This document shows positions 16,175-42,451 of a DNA stretch of 47,086 nt, one piece after another. The notes under the pieces were generated by a model that did no database searches, was not told the DNA's origin, and saw nothing but the letters and a program-made list of their open reading frames with translations. The DNA is from a phage, in assembly GCA_020364185.1 (NCBI GenBank), contig GCA_020364185.1_4846.1; one strand, written 5' to 3'. Numbering within the stretch: the first letter of the stretch is position 1; every line of letters starts with the position of its first letter. The position numbers and the translations under genes are program-made.

Positions 16175-16225
16175 TTCGATCTCCGAATTGTGTTAGCTGC
16201 TAACGTGGTGATTATATCACAGGTG

Positions 16226-16254
16226 TTGACAGTGATTATTTTGTGGTGTAGATT
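16226..16254 (+). promoter_or_regulatory. sigma70-like promoter (TTGACA - 17 bp - TAGATT) heading the tRNA-containing plus-strand unit
   Basis: TTGACA 16226-16231, 17-bp spacer, TAGATT 16249-16254; region homologous to the 14467-14519 promoter cassette. Confidence 0.5.
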
Positions 16255-16520
16255 AAGATTTAACAGAGATTGGCTCCCTGATTTCATTTAATTACATCCA
16301 ATCCTTCAATTACAATTAGCGGTCGAAAGGCGCCGGACGCGTAACCGGCATACAACAGGTAAGAGCATTGGCGCATATCAGCGGAACTCGAACCCATTGC
16401 GCAGGCGACACAGACGTGTGTTTCAGTGTTCTTTCCGTTGTGGTAATGCCATATTGATTATTTGGATAGGTTTGCATCCATTGTTATGCCAGTTTCAGTT
16501 AATCGCGAAACGCCACAACA

Positions 16521-16586
16521 CTTAATATCCAGCATTATCGCAATCATATGTAGGGGTATGTATGGGTTACGGCGCTGGATATTAAG
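16521..16586. repeat. perfect 13-bp inverted repeat (CTTAATATCCAGC / GCTGGATATTAAG) enclosing a 40-nt loop
   Basis: read directly: left arm 16521-16533, right arm 16574-16586, in ORF-free leader upstream of the tRNA. Confidence 0.6.
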
Positions 16587-16620
16587 AAAGCACGCTGGCA
16601 ATGCTTAAACCAGCACTTAT

Positions 16621-16697
16621 GGACGCGTAGCTTAATTGGTTAAAGCAACCGACTCATAATCGGCTGATTGAAGGTTCAAATCCGTCCGTGTCCACCA
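16621..16697 (+). tRNA. tRNA-Met (anticodon CAU; could be initiator/elongator Met or lysidine-modified Ile2)
   Basis: manual fold: 7-bp acceptor stem (one G-U), U8, D-arm GCTT/AAGC with GG in loop, anticodon loop CUCAUAA, T-loop TTCAAAT, discriminator A and encoded CCA; two stem mismatches. Confidence 0.6.
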
Positions 16698-16702
16698 AAT
16701 TA

Positions 16703-16730
16703 AAAGCCGCTTCATGCGGCTTTATTTATT
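16703..16730. terminator. intrinsic terminator after tRNA (also at 3' end of convergent minus gene)
   Basis: AAGCCGC-ttcat-GCGGCTT stem-loop followed by TATTTATTT. Confidence 0.55.
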
Positions 16731-17272: not shown

Positions 17273-17764
17273 ATGATTTCAGAGCGTGATTACATAGCAA
17301 TCGCGTCAAGAGTTAAATACGACCCGATTACCGGATTGTTCACCTGGGCTGTAAGTTGCGGGAAAATATCAAAAGGTGATATTGCAAACTATCACAACGA
17401 CGCAGGATACATAACCCTTGGGAAGAAAAGATTAAGGGCGCACCGAGTGGCTTGGTTTATCCATTATGGATATGTCCCTGAGCATGAAATTGATCACATA
17501 AACAATATTCGTGATGACAATAGAATTTCAAATCTGAGGGAGGCCAGTGACTGCGAGAACGCAAGGAACACAAAGATATCTAAATCAAACACGTCTGGAT
17601 ATAAAGGAGTTCATTTTTGCAAGTGCACTGGGAAATGGAGAGCCACGGTAAAGATGCATGGGAAAACCTATCATCTTGGTAGGTTTTCAGACAAAGAAGC
17701 AGCCCATAAAGCCTATTGCAAAAAAGTAGATGAACTGTTTTTGGAGTTCGCAAACCACGGCTAA
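17273..17764 (+). CDS. HNH homing endonuclease with AP2-like DNA-binding domain
   Basis: GGAGG RBS then ATG 17273; motifs RLRAHRVAWFIHYGYVPEHEIDHINNIRDDNRISNLREAS (HNH) and SGYKGVHFCKCTGKWRATVKMHGKTYHLGRFSDKEAAHKAY (AP2-like); opposite strand to surrounding structural genes. Confidence 0.75.
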   Translation: MISERDYIAIASRVKYDPITGLFTWAVSCGKISKGDIANYHNDAGYITLGKKRLRAHRVAWFIHYGYVPEHEIDHINNIRDDNRISNLREASDCENARNTKISKSNTSGYKGVHFCKCTGKWRATVKMHGKTYHLGRFSDKEAAHKAYCKKVDELFLEFANHG

Positions 17765-19793: not shown

Positions 19794-19823
19794 TTGACGT
19801 AGATTGATGAGGTGTTTATAGTT
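19794..19823 (+). promoter_or_regulatory. promoter (TTGACG - 17 bp - TATAGT) with embedded TTGACGTAGATT motif
   Basis: TTGACGTAGATT at 19794-19805, TATAGT about 17 bp downstream of the -35; followed by conserved GAGGTGATAAAAATG leader and ATG 19864. Confidence 0.45.
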
Positions 19824-20413: not shown

Positions 20414-21223
20414 ATGAAAACACTAAGCAAAATCTATTCAGACAAAGAAACGCGCAACGGCATCGCTGTGAACAAAACCTATCTCGTGCCAGTTGAACAA
20501 ATCTATCTTGAGCCTGGATACAACATCCGTGAAGCAGATGAGCAGCACGTTGAATATTTCGCGCAGTGCTGGGAATCAGGTCAGCCATTGCCAGCGCTAA
20601 CAGTTATTCCTGATGAGAAAGGAATCCGCATTCTTGATGGTCAGCATCGTTATCTCGGTGCATTGCGTGCCATTGAGCGTGGAGCGCCAATCGTTCGCAT
20701 TGAGTGTAAGGACTTCACTGGCGATGAGGCTGACAAAATTGCTTTCATGGTGTCATCTAGCCAGGGTAAGCAGCTTGACCCGTTTGAACGTGCAAAGGCA
20801 TATACCAGACTGAAAGGCTTTGGCTGGACTAACGAAGAAATCGCCAAGAAGGTAGGCCGCTCAGTATCCGATGTGCAGATGCACCTGTCATTGGGTGATG
20901 TGCCAGCGGAAGTTAAAGCGCGAATCAATGCCGGGCAAATCAGTTATGCAAATGCCGTTGCGGTAACGCGTGAGCATGGCGATGATGCGGTTAAAGTTAT
21001 CGACGAGGCAGTGGAAGAAGCCAAAGCGCAAGGCAAAGATAAAGTCACGGCAAAAGTGCTTAAGTCGAAAAAGGTTAAGCCGGTTGACCGTCTTATTGAG
21101 TTACTCAAACTAGCAGACCATGTGATTCTTCCCGCTGGTCATGTAGTGGCAGAGGATGAGGAATTTATTCAGATTCCTGTTGCTGATATTCACGAGGTTA
21201 TGGCAATTCTGGAGAAGATGTGA
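20414..21223 (+). CDS. ParB-like nuclease domain protein with HTH
   Basis: 269 aa; ParB N-terminal domain signature IRILDGQHRYLGALRA and a central helix-turn-helix-like segment (TNEEIAKKVGRSVSDVQMHL). Confidence 0.7.
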   Translation: MKTLSKIYSDKETRNGIAVNKTYLVPVEQIYLEPGYNIREADEQHVEYFAQCWESGQPLPALTVIPDEKGIRILDGQHRYLGALRAIERGAPIVRIECKDFTGDEADKIAFMVSSSQGKQLDPFERAKAYTRLKGFGWTNEEIAKKVGRSVSDVQMHLSLGDVPAEVKARINAGQISYANAVAVTREHGDDAVKVIDEAVEEAKAQGKDKVTAKVLKSKKVKPVDRLIELLKLADHVILPAGHVVAEDEEFIQIPVADIHEVMAILEKM

Positions 21224-29232: not shown

Positions 29233-29270
29233 TCTACGTCAATAAGTATTGACTAAATGATGTAGATTGG
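29229..29270. promoter_or_regulatory. divergent promoter/operator region carrying TTGACGTAGATT (minus) and TGATGTAGATT (plus)
   Basis: AATCTACGTCAA at 29231-29242 and TGATGTAGATTGGTCAA at 29258-29274 between divergently oriented ORFs. Confidence 0.45.
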
Positions 29271-29302
29271 TCAACAATAATTTTCGAGAAGGAGTAGTAA
29301 AT

Positions 29303-33282: not shown

Positions 33283-34210
33283 CCGATTGCCATGCTTCAC
33301 GCTGCTTATCAAGTCTTTCCTGCGACGACTCAAGAATGACTGGTCTACCATCCATTAATAACGCAGGAGTTTGTGCGCAATGACAATTATATCTGTTGCC
33401 ATTCTCGCTATAGAACGTGTCAATCTCTTCTGGCGTATAAAACCGTCCGTGTCGCGCCGCGTGCGTCTGGCGGGTTGTGCGCATCAATGCTGACTGCCAC
33501 AGCATCACCGTCTCAATACCTAATTCCTCGCGTGCCTCAATGACTTCCCGCCTGTTAGCCTGCCGCAGTGTTCCGGTGATTTCAGTCTGCGCCAGCTGCT
33601 TAGCGTAGCTGTGAGACACATCGACACGCTTAACGATATCAGCTTCAACATCACGAGGATTAGCGCCACGGGCAATACCTTCCATAATGACAGATGCCAG
33701 TTGCTGGCGGGAATAGTCGCTCAATCCGCGCCAGTCGGAATAGCCAGCGGCATAGGCCAGCTGGAGTCGATTCAGGTAAGGCTCACTGTAGAGTATCGCG
33801 GCAATCGGCCTCTGCTCAGCATAAACCGGAGACAGGCTTGACAGTTCTGAGTTAGCCTTCTGTGTTCCGGCCTGATACGCATCACCGATGAACACATTAG
33901 CCCACATCCTGCCGTGACCGAAATCATCACCTTCCAGCAGAATCTCGTCAATCAGCGCCTGCAACTCATCCATGAAAGTAGCAGCCCGCGCGCTACTGAA
34001 ATCGTAGAAATACAATCCGCTCGATTCCGCGTTAGCCTGACTATGCGGAATGGTGCGGAACGACTCAAGCGCACGAGCCCTGAGTTGTTTGTATTTGCGC
34101 GTTATCACTTTGTCCATCTTTGACAGTCTGGTTGCAGCGCCCAGCGGGTCGGTCAGACTCTGCGATATGCGCGGTTGAGGTAGCCTTGCGTTAAACCGGA
34201 GTATCTTCAT
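33260..34210 (-). CDS. minor head (head morphogenesis) protein, Mu F / SPP1 gp7-like
   Basis: start moved to ATG 34210 (track N-terminal extension overlaps portal by 250 nt); C-terminal half matches the conserved region recalled for Mu F-like proteins (...AQTEITGT...[12 protein letters not shown]...NCHC...). Confidence 0.6.
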
Positions 34211-35603
34211 TTTCGTCTTCCGGCGGTGTGTCTTCGCGGTAGCTTTCGTCAAGTTCAATCGGCTCCATACCAACCATGCCGCGAGCCTCATCGACGCTAA
34301 GTAGCGCAGATTGACCAGCATCAAAGAATGACTTGTTCGCAGTGGCGAGTTTAGCCAGCAATTCAGCCTTATCCAGTTCAGATGGTGCCAGCAAGTCATC
34401 CCACTTAACCTTGTAGCCATTTTCCGGCGCTTTATCGACAATGCCGAACTGAATCATGCGTTCAACGAACATTGAAATAACATAGTCAACCCATGTTTCG
34501 CGGCGCTGCTTGGCGGTCATTGCCTCCTGCATCTTGTCTTCGTCGCTCGCAAGGCGTCCGGTTTGCTGACCAAAAATGACGGTGAAAGGAAGTGCCATTG
34601 ATGCAGCGAACTGGTTGGCGGCCACTTCCCATGTTGGTTTTGGGTCTGCCGGGGTTACAGCCAGAACCTTCGCATCGGCCCCCATCGTGAACATAGCGGC
34701 ATCAATCCCTGAGTTGAGAGCCTCAATGTTCTCATTCATGATGTCGGTGAGTTCTTCAATGTCGACACCCATCGACTGCGCAAGGCTTGCTGGCGTTACG
34801 TTATCCTTCGTGTAGTTAACCGCCAGCTGGCGACTGGCATTTTTCAGGAAGCCCTCCGCAGAGCTACCGGAAACCTTCGCCATGTCGATAAGGCTGTTGT
34901 AGCCAGCACGTAGCATCGGGATGCCACTGAACATGCTTCCATCAAAGCTACCCTCAGCCAGAATGATGATGCGGTCTGGATGAATCTGCACGGAACGCTC
35001 AGGCTTGCCGTCGCTGTCGAAGTCTTCCACGGCGCTCTCCTGATATTCGTACATCTCAGGCATTCCGTAGTCTTCGCTGGTTTCGTTGTTATTCCACGCA
35101 CTGACTTTGAGCTGCTCCTCCCATACCGGAATAAAGCGGACGATGGATTTATCTTTAATGCGGCGGGTTTTGGTGATATCTACCGGCTCACTCCACTTGC
35201 GACCATCCCGGATTTGCAGGATAACGGCGGAATAGCGGTTGATAGCATTGCGCTTATCGGCTTCCTTGATGAACGGGTAGGCGCGCTTCATCATGTTGTT
35301 GATGGACAACTCCCACGTCGTTGAGTTCTTGTCATCCTCGCCATCTTCGACCACTTCGGGGTATTTCTGCCAACATTTATTAATAATGCGGTTAATGCCA
35401 GCTGCGGCTGCTGGGTGCCGTTCGTAGGCATAGCGGAACATCTCAGCGGTGATTTCCTGCGGGTATCCGCATTCCTGCCACAACCTGTCATGTTTCTGGT
35501 CAAGATTCTTCCCTCCAGCGCAAAGCCGTTGTTGCTGAAGTGCCCGGTTATTGTTCGCCACGCGGTCGCGTATGTAGGCGTTTAGTGCATCAATTTTTGA
35601 CAT
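34191..35603 (-). CDS. portal protein (putative)
   Basis: 470-aa ORF between large terminase side and Mu F-like gene; acidic C-terminus; assignment by size and synteny. Confidence 0.55.
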
Positions 35604-35610
35604 ATGTCAC

Positions 35611-35640
35611 CAATAAAAATCCCATCACGTTGGATGGGAT
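35611..35640 (-). terminator. stem-loop / attenuator immediately upstream of portal RBS
   Basis: 8-bp stem ATCCCATC-6 nt-GATGGGAT followed on minus strand by UUUUAUUG. Confidence 0.45.
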
Positions 35641-35660
35641 TATAGCATTAACTAGTAAAT

Positions 35661-35888
35661 TTAATCTTCATCGTCGTCATCGTCGTCATCATAGTCGCAT
35701 CGTTCCATCAGCGGATTCATGCGAGTTGATACCGACCTTGCATATCCATTGCGGCATAAATTATGTAACACGCCGTAAATTTCAAACATTTCAGTTCTTT
35801 CATCTCCCACATCAAGATTACAAGCCAATGCGTGGCACTCTGCTGCGAGAGACGATATTTTTTGCATCAGTTCAATTTTATTCATCAC
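35661..35888 (-). CDS. small protein with poly-Asp C-terminal tail
   Basis: 75 aa ending DYDDDDDDDED. Confidence 0.4.
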   Translation of the reverse strand: MMNKIELMQKISSLAAECHALACNLDVGDERTEMFEIYGVLHNLCRNGYARSVSTRMNPLMERCDYDDDDDDDED

Positions 35889-36070
35889 TCCACCTTTTCC
35901 AGTTTATCAATGATAACGTCGTAGCCTTTTATTTCGTATTTTGCAACCAATTCGCAACCCAAAAACCAATCGAACGCTTCATTGGCGTTTGATGTCGTAG
36001 CTGTCGCGCAAACCTTAGTAACAACATCGCCGCCATCAAGCACCTCAGCATGAATAAAATAAACGCTCAT
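35885..36070 (-). CDS. hypothetical protein
   Basis: 61-aa ORF with ATGA overlaps on both sides. Confidence 0.35.
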   Translation of the reverse strand: MSVYFIHAEVLDGGDVVTKVCATATTSNANEAFDWFLGCELVAKYEIKGYDVIIDKLEKVE

Positions 36071-36237
36071 TGCTCAATCTCCTCGCCATCAACCCAGCGT
36101 TGCAGAACTTCGATTAGTTGCGTGGCTTGGTGTTTGTCGATAACTACAATGTGCGTATCTTGGCAAATCATGCCGCCATCAGTAACACCGCCGCACATAA
36201 CATCAATATCAGGATACTCTTCGCTTTCAATAATCAT
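36067..36237 (-). CDS. hypothetical protein (56 aa)
   Basis: hand-translated MIIESEEYPDIDVMCGGVTDGGMICQDTHIVVIDKHQATQLIEVLQRWVDGEEIEQ. Confidence 0.3.
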   Translation of the reverse strand: MIIESEEYPDIDVMCGGVTDGGMICQDTHIVVIDKHQATQLIEVLQRWVDGEEIEQ

Positions 36238-36241
36238 CACA

Positions 36242-36448
36242 TCACCCTCTCAAAAAATCATTCTTGCAGCAGATACCCTTGTACCCGCGCTTCTCTTGCA
36301 GGTTAACGAAAACATCATCCAGAACGCGCAGCAGGAAATCCTCGTCGATGCCATACCGACGGCAAATCACCTCATCAGGCACGCCAGCCCGTGCCAGTGA
36401 ATAAACCTGTTCTTTTTCCTCCTGTGTGAATCCTGCATAGCTGCGCAT
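36242..36448 (-). CDS. hypothetical protein
   Basis: 68-aa ORF, first gene after promoter cluster. Confidence 0.35.
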   Translation of the reverse strand: MRSYAGFTQEEKEQVYSLARAGVPDEVICRRYGIDEDFLLRVLDDVFVNLQEKRGYKGICCKNDFLRG

Positions 36449-36468
36449 AGTGATATCTCCGATAATCC

Positions 36469-36599
36469 TGATGTAGATATACTATGCGCTCGGTGTAGAT
36501 TGGTCAAGTGTGGTGATGCGGATTTATTAACAGTAATAATAAATGTTGACGTAGATATCTACCGGTCGTAACATGAGTGATGTAGATATGAGAAAGGAG
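36469..36599 (+). promoter_or_regulatory. cluster of four GTAGAT-core motif copies plus RBS in front of PAPS-reductase-like gene
   Basis: TGATGTAGATAT 36469-36480, GTGTAGATTGGTCAA 36493-36507, TTGACGTAGATAT 36546-36558 (GTAGATATCTAC palindrome), TGATGTAGATAT 36578-36589, AAGGAG 36594-36599. Confidence 0.45.
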
Positions 36600-36607
36600 C
36601 GATGGAT

Positions 36608-37483
36608 ATGAATCAAGTTATTAGCTTTTCAGGCGGCAGGACTTCAGCGTTTATGACACTTGAGGTGCTAAAGATACACCCAGAAGCAGAGGTTATCTTT
36701 ATGGACACTGGAGCAGAGCACCCAAAAACGTATGAGTTTATTCGCAACTTCGCAAAGCACTTCAATGTCGCCGTGACATGTCTTCGTGTGGTGCCAAATC
36801 ATGAGATGCGCAAAGCAAGTACGTATGAGCAGTTAACCGTCGATGAGATTGGCCCGGACCTTGAGCCATGGCGTAGAATGTTGCGCAAGTACGGTCACCC
36901 ATATGTTGGTGGGGCGTTCTGCACTGACCGCATGAAAACAGTCCCATTCACAAAATACTGCAATGAAAAATACGGGAAGAGCAATTATGAGAGATGGCTT
37001 GGTATCAGGGTTGATGAACAAAATCGGTTAAAGAATAGAGGTGACGGTTTTCATTACCTTGCAGACATCAGTGACTTTGAAAAGCAGGATATCCTTGACT
37101 GGTGGTCAATGCAAGAGTTCGACCTTGGCATTAAGGAGCATCTTGGCAATTGCGTTTTCTGCATCAAGAAGAGTCTGCAGAAGGTTGCGCTTGCTGCAAA
37201 GGATGAGCCTGAACTTGCCGCTGAATTTTGGCAGATGATTCAGGCTGAAGATAAAAAATCAGACAAGATAATGTATCGTTCAAACAGAAGCCTTGGCGAC
37301 GTTATAGCTTTATTTAACGATGCAAGCAGGGATGAACTGGCATCACGGATGACGTCAATGCGCCAGTACGATACTGGCTCATGCAGTGAGAGCTGCGAGG
37401 CGTTTGGTGGGACCGAGAATTCAATGAAGCATTACTTAAATGACGCTGGTGATGATTATGAAAATCGTGGCGATGACTCATGA
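36608..37483 (+). CDS. PAPS reductase-like PP-loop ATPase family protein
   Basis: N-terminal ISFSGGRTSA PP-loop; start at ATG 36608 (8 nt after AAGGAG) preferred over 36602. Confidence 0.7.
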   Translation: MNQVISFSGGRTSAFMTLEVLKIHPEAEVIFMDTGAEHPKTYEFIRNFAKHFNVAVTCLRVVPNHEMRKASTYEQLTVDEIGPDLEPWRRMLRKYGHPYVGGAFCTDRMKTVPFTKYCNEKYGKSNYERWLGIRVDEQNRLKNRGDGFHYLADISDFEKQDILDWWSMQEFDLGIKEHLGNCVFCIKKSLQKVALAAKDEPELAAEFWQMIQAEDKKSDKIMYRSNRSLGDVIALFNDASRDELASRMTSMRQYDTGSCSESCEAFGGTENSMKHYLNDAGDDYENRGDDS

Positions 37484-37698
37484 ACAACGAAAAGCACGAC
37501 GATGGCTCCATTTCTATAGATACCAATGATGGAAGGCATTTCTTTGCTCATTTCATTAATGGCTCATACAACTTAATAGAGGTTGTATCTGGTGGTTGCG
37601 TGGGAATCGGCAGAATTGAAGATGAGGGAAGCATTAATCACATAATATTGAGGTGGATTGAACTTAATCCAGTGGCCCCAAGCGCCGAACTATTCTAA
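37480..37698 (+). CDS. hypothetical protein
   Basis: 72-aa ORF, ATGA-coupled to upstream gene. Confidence 0.4.
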   Translation: MNNEKHDDGSISIDTNDGRHFFAHFINGSYNLIEVVSGGCVGIGRIEDEGSINHIILRWIELNPVAPSAELF

Positions 37699-37703
37699 AA
37701 ACA

Positions 37704-37730
37704 AGCCCTCATTCGAGGGCTTTATTTTTA
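37704..37730. terminator. bidirectional intrinsic terminator
   Basis: AGCCCTC-attc-GAGGGCT followed by TTTATTTTTAT. Confidence 0.65.
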
Positions 37731-39152
37731 TCTCCTGCGCCTGATTAGCATTCCGCTGCCGCGCTGGACGATGTGGTCATTAAGTGCGTAGCGAACCGCA
37801 TCCCAGTAATGGTTAAATGCATCAACAATATCTGTCAGCACATTGCCAGTCAGCTTATCCACCTTATAGCTGTACATTGCGGCCTCATTCTGCATTTCCT
37901 TGCATCTGTCATGAATAATGATACTGTCGCAGCCACGAAGCCACGTCACACCATCCTCAACGCTTCCCGGCCATTTTGTGCATGGATGAATATCGAATCC
38001 AGAGCGCTTGATGTGGCTGATGGTTTCAGGTCGAGCGCAGTCTGCATACCATCGCGCGCGCTTAGCCATCGGGAATGATTGCTCCATCGCGGCTGGTGTA
38101 TCGGTAATTTCAAGCCCCACCTTGCCGTACTCGCGATTAATATAAATGTTGCGTCGCCCGCCCGGTAATTCTTCGATGTAAACCTCAACCATTGCGGTAG
38201 GATCGGTGGAAAAACCAAAATCCATCCCGAAGTATGGGCCGTGCCATTCAGGTTTGACCTCAAAGTTATCAATGCGCCACTTGCCTCCGAAGACCTGCTC
38301 GTCGCTGCGTTTGTTAAATTTTCCTTCCCATATCCACATGTAGCGATCGAAATCGACGCGCTTCATTTGCTCCATAGCAGACGGCAGAGGTGTATCCCAG
38401 AACCACGGATTGTCTGAATAGTTACATTCGATAATCAGGATTTCATCATTTTCGAATATGCCATCAACCATCTGTGAGTGATATGGGGCAATCCAGTTTT
38501 TCCATGTTGGGTCTGTATCTTTGTTGGGGTTGAATGAGCACCACAATTCGGAATTGGCAGCACGGATGGTAGGAACGAGAATATCCCAGCTTGTCTGGCT
38601 GACGTTCTCTGCTTCCTCTACCCAGCCGACGGTAATGCCAGCAAAACCCTTAACGGTTGTCTGATTGCGATACAGCCCCTTAAAGCGAAATTTAGCCTTA
38701 GTCTTCTTGTGTGTTATCTCGTTGTTGATAACGCGAAACTCTGCCGATTCGCCCTTGCGCGCTATTTCGTCGCACAATTCCTGGTAGCTTGAGTCTTCAA
38801 TGGATTGCTGAATCTCACGAAAGCAGGCAAAGCGGTCAGGTCGAAACCTTGCACGTTCAGTAAGTATAGTGATAATAGTTCTCGTCTTCCCTGACCCACG
38901 GCCGCCGTAGACAAACTTAAAACGCTTCGGGTAAAGCAGTCGCTCCAGCTTTGCGGGAATCAGGTGGTCGGCATCGGTGGTTGCGTTGGTTACGTCATCA
39001 ACGCCAGTGGCTGTCATCCTTAACCGCTTGATGACGTTTTTCTGCATGTCACAGATACCAAAAATGGCAGACTCTGCAACATCCGTCATCGCATCATCAA
39101 TCTGAGCTTCCAGTTTTTCAATTGCCAGAGCGGATAGGCGTTTACGAGCCAT
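37728..39152 (-). CDS. terminase large subunit
   Basis: Walker A FVYGGRGSGKT near N-terminus, about 475 aa, acidic nuclease-type C-terminal half; ATG 39152 chosen (track start 39170 is TTG). Confidence 0.8.
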   Translation of the reverse strand: MARKRLSALAIEKLEAQIDDAMTDVAESAIFGICDMQKNVIKRLRMTATGVDDVTNATTDADHLIPAKLERLLYPKRFKFVYGGRGSGKTRTIITILTERARFRPDRFACFREIQQSIEDSSYQELCDEIARKGESAEFRVINNEITHKKTKAKFRFKGLYRNQTTVKGFAGITVGWVEEAENVSQTSWDILVPTIRAANSELWCSFNPNKDTDPTWKNWIAPYHSQMVDGIFENDEILIIECNYSDNPWFWDTPLPSAMEQMKRVDFDRYMWIWEGKFNKRSDEQVFGGKWRIDNFEVKPEWHGPYFGMDFGFSTDPTAMVEVYIEELPGGRRNIYINREYGKVGLEITDTPAAMEQSFPMAKRARWYADCARPETISHIKRSGFDIHPCTKWPGSVEDGVTWLRGCDSIIIHDRCKEMQNEAAMYSYKVDKLTGNVLTDIVDAFNHYWDAVRYALNDHIVQRGSGMLIRRRR

Positions 39153-39297
39153 GACGCGAAGTCCCAACAATAGTAATTATTGTCGCCGTCAGCATGAACA
39201 TGCATCCCCATATCGCGAAAGCGGTAGCTCCTGAAATACCACCAGCGATAAACATCAACATTGCAAGCGCCATGCTTGAGAGTGCCAGCTTAAGCAT
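39142..39297 (-). CDS. small hydrophobic ORF (51 aa), possible membrane peptide
   Basis: hand-translated MLKLALSSMALAMLMFIAGGISGATAFAIWGCMFMLTATIITIVGTSRHGS between terminase genes. Confidence 0.25.
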   Translation of the reverse strand: MLKLALSSMALAMLMFIAGGISGATAFAIWGCMFMLTATIITIVGTSRHGS

Positions 39298-39300
39298 TAT

Positions 39301-40743: not shown

Positions 40744-41127
40744 TTAGTAATCATCGCTATCATCATCATTGTATTCGATGAACTTTCCAAGGCGCTGCAA
40801 TTCTGCGCCAGCCATGAAGTAACCAAGCGCTTCAGCTCGCTCCGAGTCACTCTTAAATTCAGAAAGCGGATAACGCTCGTAGAATTTGTTAATCAAAAAC
40901 GCCTGGTCGAATTTAGTTGCGTCGTACTTTTCTTCGTCATTCTCCCGCCCGAGGTATGAAAGAGATGTAACTGCTGAGGCTATGAAGCCATCACGATTTA
41001 TTAAACTTTTAAGCACCTCAAGGTCTTCTTGTGATTTAATCCTGAAGTTAAGCTGCGCAATTCCTGACATTGAAGCTGCACCACCTCTTGTTACAGCGTG
41101 GTAATGATAAACATATCTGTTATTCAT
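40744..41127 (-). CDS. hypothetical protein with acidic C-terminus
   Basis: ORF ending ...EYNDDDSDDY; start at ATG 41127 assumed. Confidence 0.35.
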   Translation of the reverse strand: MNNRYVYHYHAVTRGGAASMSGIAQLNFRIKSQEDLEVLKSLINRDGFIASAVTSLSYLGRENDEEKYDATKFDQAFLINKFYERYPLSEFKSDSERAEALGYFMAGAELQRLGKFIEYNDDDSDDY

Positions 41128-41190
41128 GCATACATCTCCCACAAAGCGTGCGCCACGTAGAGCGCACTGATAATTAAGATGAACGGGTAG

Positions 41191-41538
41191 CTATTCACTT
41201 TTCAGGCACTCTACGCAAGTGCCATTGATGAAGTGATGCTTGTGGTTGCTTAGGCTTTCAAATTGCTGCGCGGTAGTATCAAACTGAACCAGTTTAACTA
41301 CATCATCAAACAGAACGAAGTCACCATCATTGTCTTCAGTCATGTCAGCGCCACAATCCTGACCGCACGAGTCACAACCACCCATATCAAGTTCGTATCG
41401 CTTGAGTTTTGCGATATCTGATAAATTCAGCGCCAGTACAGCTAGGTCATAAACCTCGTCAGCGGTATAGCCTGCACCATGCCCATACATTTCAATGCGG
41501 GATATGATTTCTTCTACACGTTGTTTTGTGATTGTCAT
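41191..41538 (-). CDS. hypothetical Cys-rich protein
   Basis: 115-aa ORF with CDSCGQDCG and CVEC motifs. Confidence 0.4.
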   Translation of the reverse strand: MTITKQRVEEIISRIEMYGHGAGYTADEVYDLAVLALNLSDIAKLKRYELDMGGCDSCGQDCGADMTEDNDGDFVLFDDVVKLVQFDTTAQQFESLSNHKHHFINGTCVECLKSE

Positions 41539-41783
41539 ACCCTTACCCCCATAATTTCTTCGTAATAACCATCTTCTTCAAACTCAATCTTAGCGATTTT
41601 CATCGCATCCTCATCAGTGATGTCAACCGCTTTGAATTTGCACTTTGCCAGCACCATGCATCCTGATAGCAATAGCCACTTGTTCCACCAGCATGCTCGC
41701 TTGATTGTTCTTGACGAGTACATTTTGTTTTGCACAAACCAGTACTCGTATTTTTTTACTTTTGCCACATCATCACCAGTCAA
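41535..41783 (-). CDS. hypothetical protein (possible lipoprotein signal LLSGC)
   Basis: 82-aa ORF; internal segment KWLLLSGCMVLA resembles a lipobox context. Confidence 0.3.
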   Translation of the reverse strand: MTGDDVAKVKKYEYWFVQNKMYSSRTIKRACWWNKWLLLSGCMVLAKCKFKAVDITDEDAMKIAKIEFEEDGYYEEIMGVRV

Positions 41784-42420
41784 AATAAACGCGCTGAATC
41801 GAGGTCAGAACACAATAATCAGCTCATCCATTACTCTTCGCTTGCCTTCACCGTTAAACACACGCACAACACGATTTACGCGGATAGATTTCATTGCATT
41901 GCGCGCCTTCTTGCTCATAAAGTTCTGCGCGCCAACGTGACCGAGTTCCGGCTCCAGTTTCTCGCGACGATAGATAGTTTTTGCCATGTATTATTTCTCC
42001 ACGTGCACCTGATACATTGCTTGCCAGATTAACACAACAGCATCGCTTAGCTCATCATCAGTAAGGTAGTCGATATCGAAGTTTTCAATAACTTCACGAA
42101 TACCCGCCTCAATCATTTCTTCTGTTGGTTGGATTGGTTTGTTGCTCATTTTGTTACTCCTTATACCCTGATTTAGAAACTGCCACTGCGATAATGATGA
42201 ATGCCACGATAACCAGACTGGCGATAAGTTCGAATGTTGCGCCTGTCATTTGCTTAACCCATACGCTGAGATTAAAGCCTGCATTGCTGCGTTCCAGAAT
42301 GCTTCTGCGGGAATGCTGTTGTTGGTGCGCTCAACTGCAATGCGTGCCATAGCCTGTGCATCTTCAAATTCTTCACGTTCTTTGATTTTCATATCTTCAC
42401 CCTCGTTTGTTTCGATGAAT

Positions 42421-42451
42421 TCAATCTACATCAATGAAGATTCTACGTCAA
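42421..42451 (-). promoter_or_regulatory. promoter region with TTGACGTAGAAT and TGATGTAGATT on minus strand
   Basis: GATTCTACGTCAA 42439-42451 and TCAATCTACATCA 42421-42433. Confidence 0.45.

Follow-up and report, generated by a model that had tools for sequence, protein, structure and literature searches.

A NinC-family PP-loop enzyme and its small partner as cargo of a hypervariable slot in an enterobacterial siphophage, with a possible role in counter-defence

The gene ninC has been known since lambda was first sequenced in 1982, and the nin region in which it lies is a block of early lytic genes rather than of genes expressed from the prophage. The NinC family is long known and routinely annotated, its homologues are widespread, and it is an old unsolved family. 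We describe here a NinC-family gene in the 47,086-bp genome of an enterobacterial siphophage (GenBank assembly GCA_020364185.1, contig GCA_020364185.1_4846.1; this whole stretch of DNA is called the window below), where it is followed by a coupled open reading frame (ORF) for a protein of 72 residues. We conclude that positions 36559-37702, which carry this pair, represent cargo in a hypervariable slot for accessory ('moron') genes, lying convergent with the large terminase gene. Our overall proposal is that a cargo-slot cassette delivers a NinC-family enzyme which would serve in DNA-directed counter-defence. We hold this package in evenly balanced credence, with nearly all of the doubt falling on its functional part.

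Our literature searches on NinC function yielded an essentiality screen and a vibriophage preprint. In the latter, Piel et al. moved two genes of Vibrio phage 44E38.1, p0018 and p0019, into a sister phage, which gained infection of a Vibrio host carrying the Dnd system (bioRxiv 10.1101/2021.05.05.442762). The PAPS domain of p0018 is of the NinC type, being 59% identical to lambda NinC and 53% identical to the window protein (residues 3-268). Like the window cassette, p0018 is an accessory gene exchanged between close phages; unlike p0018, the window protein lacks a Dam domain and goes with a different partner protein. Another anti-Dnd protein, JSS1_004, was considered as a possible relative and set aside, as it is a kinase unrelated to NinC.

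Beyond the enzyme itself, the new elements of the present analysis are: 1) a cassette with a dedicated small partner; 2) a slot bounded by a promoter and a terminator; 3) a recurrent Dam linkage of NinC genes, beside the resemblance of their products to SspD and BrxP.

The NinC-family enzyme and its lambda counterpart

A preliminary description of this stretch, made from its letters, had recognised a PP-loop (SFSGGRTSA) and placed the protein in the phosphoadenosine phosphosulfate (PAPS) reductase family. Both points are borne out by a match to PF01507 (PAPS_reduct) at 41.8 bits against a cut-off of 22.5, with residues of catalytic type intact on alignment. The same description missed that the protein belongs to the lambda NinC family. 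The enzyme matches phrog_33262 at 5e-101 and phrog_424 at 2e-65, and tblastn aligns it with lambda 41082-41918 (ninC) at 47% identity over residues 3-270 (1e-76). Homologues occur in 543 of 50,697 phage records searched with tblastn, many of them annotated as NinC, and in 1918 database clusters. The homology to lambda NinC extends over the full length and includes the C-terminal GNCxFCxKK and CSESCE motifs. Judged by sequence, the enzyme is a member of the lambda NinC family within the PAPS-reductase superfamily, and its catalytic-type residues are intact.

The PP-loop occupies residues 8-16 and conforms to the intact SGGxxS pattern of ATP pyrophosphatases, in the form SxSGGxxS. In an alignment of 48 sequences its residues S8, S10, G11, G12, R13 and S15 are invariant, as are the stretches D35-T-G-x-E-H, R136-x-D-E, G182-N-C184-x-F-C187-I-K-K and C261-x-x-S-C265-E. 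A set of seven members spanning distant parts of the family, including lambda NinC, phage Oslo gp65, 44E38.1 p0018 and Chi gp42 (28% identical), also keeps the PP-loop along with invariant C107, C184, C187, C261 and C265. These five family-wide cysteines comprise a CxxC and a CxxxC motif. They are followed in the window protein by an acidic C-terminal tail of ~25 residues, which shows no conservation.

An AlphaFold2 model of the enzyme has a mean predicted local distance difference test (pLDDT) score of 85, although the tail from residue 257, including C261 and C265, is of low confidence. The PP-loop is placed after the strand formed by residues 4-8. The nearest solved folds are adenosine phosphosulfate (APS) and PAPS reductases, followed by the [4Fe-4S] enzyme LarE, GMP synthase, TilS, TtuA and NcsA. 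In all these cases the fold alignment is confined to the PP-loop core, and the C-terminal ~100 residues are specific to the family.

Lambda NinC (Nin290, lambdap64) and its lambdoid orthologues thus provide the closest described counterpart, with full-length homology at 47-48% identity, a similar size (290 residues, against 291-293 in the window) and a shared series of motifs (SFSGGRTSA, T-G-x-E-H, R-x-D-E, GNCxFCxKK and CSESCE). In both phages the gene is an accessory, non-essential one (PMC10695390) and is followed by a small translationally overlapping ORF. The settings differ: whereas lambda ninC follows the replication genes as part of the nin region, the window gene is plus-strand cargo in a slot flanked by the terminase and portal genes of a non-lambdoid siphophage. 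Its 72-residue partner is unrelated to the Cys-rich NinD of lambda, and, unlike lambda ninC, it has its own promoter and terminator and codes for the extra acidic tail.

The true start of the window gene is probably the second ATG, at 36608, which has an AAGGAG sequence 8 nt before it; most homologues begin with M..VISFSGG.

Sulfur enzymes, defence systems and the probable function

Genes of this kind are commonly called 'cysH' sulfur-metabolism genes in virome studies, and the labels given by annotation pipelines agree with this. One explanation of the locus would accordingly be that it encodes a true PAPS/APS reductase of the CysH type and serves as an auxiliary metabolic gene, boosting the assimilatory sulfate reduction of the host during infection. 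It draws on the Pfam PAPS_reduct domain, on the APS and PAPS reductases being the nearest solved folds, and on the PHROG label 'phosphoadenosine phosphosulfate reductase'. The more specific comparisons speak against it. The scores of the window protein lie far under the cut-offs of the CysH models (21.4 against 165.1 for TIGR00434, 28.6 against 154 for NF002537 and 19.6 against 254.2 for TIGR02057). When the NinC profile was compared with Escherichia coli CysH by hhalign, only the N-terminal 64 columns aligned, and at the PP-loop the intact SFSGGRTSA of NinC stood opposite a degenerate SSSFGIQAA. The C-terminal region of assimilatory CysH (PDB 2goy, 6vpu, 1sur) differs from that of NinC, where the half bearing the CxxC and CxxxC motifs is family-specific; the C-terminal ECGLH motif, which defines PAPS reductases, was not found in the window protein sequence. 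NinC genes also lack a sulfur-assimilation context, as their neighbours are genes for DNA replication, recombination and Dam methylation rather than cys genes. Given the missed score thresholds and the different state of the PP-loop we rejected a CysH role, to which we attach next to no credence. The 'cysH' metabolic label is likely to be wrong here: with an intact PP-loop, failed CysH thresholds and Dam and recombination genes as neighbours, NinC is more readily accounted for by a role in counter-defence or on nucleic acids.

Among models of defence-system proteins the picture was different. The SspD hidden Markov model (HMM) was matched by all seven of the diverse NinC members (best 4e-16) and that of BrxP by six of them, while DndC was matched weakly by a single one (E about 0.004). 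The window protein itself matched SspD at 2.1e-12, over model positions 2-122 of 277 only, and BrxP at 3.6e-7, over model positions 136-283 of 779; in PADLOC it had no match to DndC models at E <= 1. A profile search to place the protein among CysH, DndC-like and other PP-loop subfamilies, as the preliminary description had suggested, thus leads to NinC and to neither CysH nor DndC. By HMM comparison SspD and BrxP appear to be its closest relatives in defence systems. What NinC has in common with SspD, BrxP and DndC is a PP-loop core of the ATP-pyrophosphatase kind, together with conserved cysteines. The C-terminal half of NinC, in contrast, is its own, and no cysteine desulfurase, ATPase or DNA-recognition partner is encoded nearby.

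A second line of evidence comes from the genomic company of NinC genes elsewhere. A Dam methylase gene (PF05869) stands directly upstream or downstream of NinC, at 0-127 bp, in about 25 of 80 loci on viral contigs; when the sequences are grouped at 90% identity, this amounts to 7 of 26 lineages. Salmonella phage Oslo has the gene order NinB-Dam-NinC-NinD, and a protein of 479 residues in Vibrio phage 75E35.1 joins a NinC domain to Dam and is preceded by a DUF6475 protein; this fusion is 100% identical to 44E38.1 p0018. Elsewhere NinC is surrounded by the replication and recombination genes of lambdoid nin regions (NinB, NinE, NinG/Rap, RusA). The preliminary suggestion that such phage enzymes may be involved in nucleotide or DNA modification appears compatible with the Dam adjacency and fusion and with the anti-Dnd activity of the fused homologue, with the reservation that this activity was seen together with a neighbour gene.

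On this basis we propose that NinC would use ATP to adenylate a substrate, and that a cysteine or iron-sulfur (Fe-S) centre would then carry out sulfur or redox chemistry, as in its relatives SspD, BrxP, DndC, TtuA and LarE. The target would be a nucleic acid, most likely DNA; DNA is the probable substrate because NinC genes adjoin or are fused to Dam and keep company with nin-region genes, and because the protein resembles SspD and BrxP. Expressed from a promoter of the host RNA polymerase, the cassette would have a counter-defence role, either marking phage DNA or interfering with phosphorothioate-based immunity of the Dnd/Ssp/BREX-4 type, and the 72-residue protein would be a partner or specificity subunit. 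Counter-defence against modification-dependent immunity is the probable setting since the vibriophage result was an anti-Dnd one.

A bolder version of this proposal, which we regard as a long shot, is that NinC and its small partner make up a minimal, self-sufficient DNA-marking module, applying a sulfur mark of the phosphorothioate type or another ATP-dependent mark. Sulfur-trafficking proteins of the host (IscS) would suffice in place of DndD/E or SspB/C, and the Dam-linked versions would be targeted by the methylase. Were this so, phage DNA would look like 'self' to immunity of the Dnd/Ssp/BREX-4 type, and lambda NinC would gain a function.

Several observations weigh against a DNA-directed counter-defence function: 1) The similarity to SspD and BrxP is limited to the N-terminal ~120-165 residues of NinC. 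2) The window encodes no DndA/D/E- or SspA/B/C-like partner and no homologue of Dam or DUF6475; the cassette consists of NinC and a 72-residue protein without family match, and hence of no co-encoded phosphorothioation partners. Among the other ORFs of the window that were scanned are a helicase, an AAA ATPase, a ParB-like protein, a primase and an HNH protein, none of which adjoins the cassette. 3) Nineteen of the 26 NinC lineages sampled have no adjacent Dam gene. 4) In the vibriophage work two genes were transferred at once and NinC was fused to Dam, so that the share of the PAPS domain was not separated (bioRxiv 10.1101/2021.05.05.442762). 5) Lambda ninC is dispensable (PMC10695390), and we found in the literature no reported biochemical activity or function of any NinC protein. 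6) An Fe-S cluster in NinC is a conjecture from cysteine conservation alone, and the timing of the promoter is likewise inferred. 7) The context in phage Chi fits a role in the nucleotide pool equally well.

The last of these points bears on an alternative that we consider unlikely, namely that NinC is a PP-loop enzyme acting on RNA or free nucleotides, through thiolation of tRNA in the manner of TtcA or TtuA or through modification of precursors, and tunes translation or the nucleotide pool with no relation to anti-defence. In Chi a NinC-like gene overlaps a gene for nucleoside 2-deoxyribosyltransferase, with ThyX nearby (L099 2477-3834, gp42-gp41). The fold neighbours TtuA, NcsA, TilS, ThiI, GMP synthase and QueC point in the same direction, and the window phage has its own tRNA-Met. 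Set against this are the closest HMM relatives outside the family, SspD and BrxP, which belong to DNA phosphorothioation systems, the recurrent adjacency and fusion with a DNA adenine methylase, and the direction of the only genetic data, which is that of a DNA-based defence.

The resemblance to SspD and BrxP in PADLOC also lends itself to a reversed interpretation, in which the cassette protects the host or excludes superinfecting phages as a minimal SspD/BrxP-like defence component against competitors. The moron-like slot and the presence of many NinC genes in prophages would suit such a module. Lambdoid NinC, however, lies in the nin region among early lytic genes, which are not prophage-expressed; the annotation of the close relative AB4P2 contains no integrase, and this speaks against expression from a prophage; a restriction or effector partner is lacking; and in the vibriophage data the benefit went to the infecting phage. 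We regard this interpretation as very improbable. A functional link of the enzyme to the ParB-like gene at 20414-21223, after the pairing of IbrA with IbrB, was also considered and rejected, since the two genes are 15 kb apart; a ParB-like gene is annotated at the corresponding position of AB4P2 too, so that it looks like a backbone gene.

The two-gene cassette and the hypervariable slot

The preliminary description of NinC and the 72-residue ORF as a coupled plus-strand unit is upheld by an ATGA overlap between the two genes and by a promoter of their own. The small protein has no match in Pfam, NCBIfam, PHROG or PADLOC, and none by tblastn among the 50,697 phage records. A search of 5.8 billion proteins yielded four close relatives at 82-97% identity, and an identical copy is present in an NCBI record of E. 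coli. A full-library phmmer search gave one real cluster, besides weak matches to long repeat proteins that we regard as uninformative. Its AlphaFold2 model (pLDDT 92.5) has five strands and one helix.

In all six places examined, which belong to two phage backbones, the small gene starts at or overlaps the NinC stop. Two of the contigs (L087 and L088) carry the cassette in a different backbone, with Terminase_6N, a DUF4055 portal and Mu F. As the small ORF always follows NinC, even in this unrelated backbone, the pair appears to be a mobile two-gene cassette. In the contig L007 a homologue of 61 residues (43% identity) occupies the same position, and an extra small ORF lies ahead of NinC. AB4P2 is without the small ORF; relative to it the window has ~290 extra bases (37406-37694), and these account for the small ORF and for the acidic, variable end of NinC. 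The cassette had no match in the complete E. coli genomes of the collection. The gene overlap in Chi and a 4-nt overlap of lambda NinC with the Cys-rich NinD (L100 1201-2243) suggest that NinC genes often have a coupled downstream partner, of different kinds.

The relatives of the window phage, at 84-91% nucleotide identity in the conserved parts, include Salmonella phages STGO-35-1 (Caminolopintovirus) and SeSz-2, Escherichia phage swi2 (Swiduovirus) and Shigella phage DS8, and the 'Acinetobacter' phage AB4P2 is likewise akin to it. We compared the slot in nine related genomes, those of eight named phages and the viral contig L007. At one and the same site, between the terminase gene and a conserved gene for 68 residues, DS8 has no cargo (76 bp between the genes); LPSTLL and Segz_1 have one ORF of 50 residues; swi2, SeSz-2 and Bas80 have two small ORFs; STGO-35-1 has an ORF of 198 residues; AB4P2 has NinC alone; and L007 has a small ORF, NinC and the 61-residue ORF. 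Across the relatives, then, the site is empty or filled by one of five sets of cargo different from that of the window. The alternative cargos with PHROG assignment (the ORFs of Segz_1 and SeSz-2 were unscanned) belong to five families of unknown function, and the 50-residue ORF of LPSTLL had no PHROG assignment.

Homology to the relatives stops at 36558, inside the promoter spacer, and restarts at 37703, where the terminator stem begins; cargo is therefore swapped within the bounds of a promoter and a terminator that are both conserved. A promoter-gene-terminator unit of variable presence at a fixed position is what characterizes a moron-like accessory slot. The GC content of the cargo (0.447, against 0.462 ± 0.034 genome-wide) gives no sign of foreign origin. 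The cassette had been described as inserted between the large terminase and portal genes. Both do flank it, but four small minus-strand ORFs (35661-36448) separate it from the portal, and the same place holds different cargo in the relatives. The locus offers a convenient test system, as the two genes of the cassette come with a promoter and a terminator of their own, and natural near-isogenic comparators exist with NinC alone, with other cargo or with nothing.

Two observations on the compared genomes may be added. The record of AB4P2 (OR544125.1, 'Acinetobacter phage vB_AbaM_AB4P2') is labelled as that of an Acinetobacter myovirus; it is ~89% identical in DNA, and 93-96% in NinC, to the window and to siphophages of Salmonella, Escherichia and Shigella, and this similarity makes the host or the morphotype label look doubtful. 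In Salmonella phage Segz_1 the large terminase is annotated with 2520 bp (L097 2145-4664), against about 1422 bp in all relatives; the extra length suggests that the gene is interrupted by an intervening element, either an intein or an inserted homing endonuclease, or that the annotation is a fused one.

Promoters, the GTAGAT motif and other features

The features of the locus are collected in the table. The strong downstream terminator reported earlier was recovered, with an 8-bp stem, a 4-nt loop and folding energies of -14.9 kcal/mol on the plus strand (z = -5.0) and -17.2 kcal/mol on the minus strand (z = -5.8). T runs are present on both strands, so that the terminator is bidirectional. 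Rfam gave no match within 35500-39300.

Table. Features of the NinC cassette and its surroundings (coordinates are those of the window; a dot marks features not assigned to one strand)
Feature	Coordinates	Strand	Remarks
Portal gene (flank)	34191-35603	-	
Conserved 68-residue gene (flank)	36242-36448	-	phrog_13301; first gene from P(-)
Divergent promoter region between the 68-residue gene and the cassette	36449-36601	.	about 36449-36558 is conserved backbone
Motif copy TGATGTAGAT	36469-36478	+	exact 10-mer
Promoter P(-), sigma-70-like, TTGACC-17-TAGTAT	36479-36507	-	consensus scan; conserved in relatives
Motif copy GTAGATTGGTCAA	36495-36507	+	GTAGAT abuts the -35 of P(-); identical 13-mer at 29262-29274
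Promoter P(+), sigma-70-like, for the cassette, TTGACG-17-TAACAT	36546-36574	+	consensus scan; predicted start site about 36581-36583
Motif copy TGACGTAGAT	36547-36562	.	runs into the palindrome GTAGATATCTAC
Motif copy TGATGTAGAT	36578-36587	+	exact 10-mer; just past the -10 of P(+)
Ribosome-binding site AAGGAG	36594-36599	+	read from sequence; 8 nt before ATG 36608
NinC-family PP-loop (PAPS-reductase-like) protein gene	36602-37483	+	293 residues (291 from ATG 36608)
Partner ORF, 72 residues	37480-37698	+	translationally coupled; ATGA overlap with the NinC stop
Intrinsic terminator, bidirectional	37703-37722	.	common to the cassette and the convergent terminase gene; conserved right boundary of cargo
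Large terminase gene (flank)	37728-39170	-	PF04466, PF17288

The preliminary description had placed the densest cluster of GTAGAT in the window, with four copies, upstream of the cassette. There are in fact five within 115 bp (36473-36587), four on the plus strand (36473, 36495, 36551, 36582) and one on the minus strand (36557), which forms the latter half of the palindrome GTAGATATCTAC. Simulating the window 300 times with a first-order Markov model gave at most 3 copies in any stretch of 120 bp, and the window as a whole has 27 copies, against 15.4 ± 4.0 in shuffles.

The density and the position directly upstream of the gene could be taken to mean that the cluster is a cassette-specific operator, which arrived with the PAPS-reductase gene; a link of this kind was implicit in the preliminary description. 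The comparative evidence led us to reject it as scarcely credible. The region is near-identical up to ~36558 in AB4P2, STGO-35-1 and swi2, whatever the cargo; in the latter two, which carry other cargo, the motif region is about 95% conserved. The motif is absent upstream of the same NinC and small-ORF cassette in the other backbone (L087). An extended form, TGAYGTAGAT, is present in all six of the divergent intergenic regions of the genome, at the -35 or -10 positions of promoters (14509, 19795, 29241(-), 29258, 31950, 31987(-), 36469, 36547, 36578, 42433(-) and 42450(-)), and AB4P2 has 13 motif copies genome-wide. A motif that is kept beside other cargo, is lacking before the cassette elsewhere and recurs at every divergent promoter region belongs to the promoters of the backbone.

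The two placements of the motif can be stated precisely. As a -35 element it has the form TTGACGTAGAT, with a -10 element 17 nt later; as a -10 element it has the form TGATG-TAGATT, and TTGACA or TTGACG precedes it at a distance of 17 nt. At 42450/42433, and also in STGO-35-1 and L007, a single promoter has the motif in both places; where both are taken, the spacing is 17 bp. The window has six exact copies of TGATGTAGAT and four of TTGACGTAGAT, far above shuffles; one copy of TTGACGTAGAT contains the -35 of P(+), and the others are at 19794, 29242(-) and 31949. In P(-) GTAGAT lies in the spacer (36495-36500) and just past the -10 (36473-36478). The high local density arises because P(-) and P(+) stand back to back. 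TGAYGTAGAT may be a plain promoter consensus or the operator of a phage regulator, for which the 68-residue protein is a candidate. This protein is encoded next to the slot in all relatives examined, and its AB4P2 homologue is annotated as an InsA C-terminal domain protein. A by-product of the analysis is therefore a promoter motif that organises the many divergent transcription units of this phage group.

P(-) reads towards the 68-residue gene, the small ORFs and the portal. With a bidirectional terminator between terminase and portal, the block of head genes appears to be split into two transcription units, and the portal-side unit appears to restart from P(-), at 36507-36479. The small minus-strand ORFs between the 68-residue gene and the portal vary from none to six among the relatives, which marks a second variable region (35661-36240 in the window).

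Farther away, a stretch of ~550 bp (16175-16725) without a convincing ORF contains the tRNA-Met gene (CAT) at 16621-16697 on the plus strand, and a variant of the motif, TGGTGTAGAT, lies at 16244, ~370 bp upstream of it. An endonuclease gene with HNH_3 and AP2 domains (17273-17764) is on the plus strand within a block of minus-strand genes, as is typical of homing endonucleases; the relatives have HNH genes near the terminase instead of at this position.

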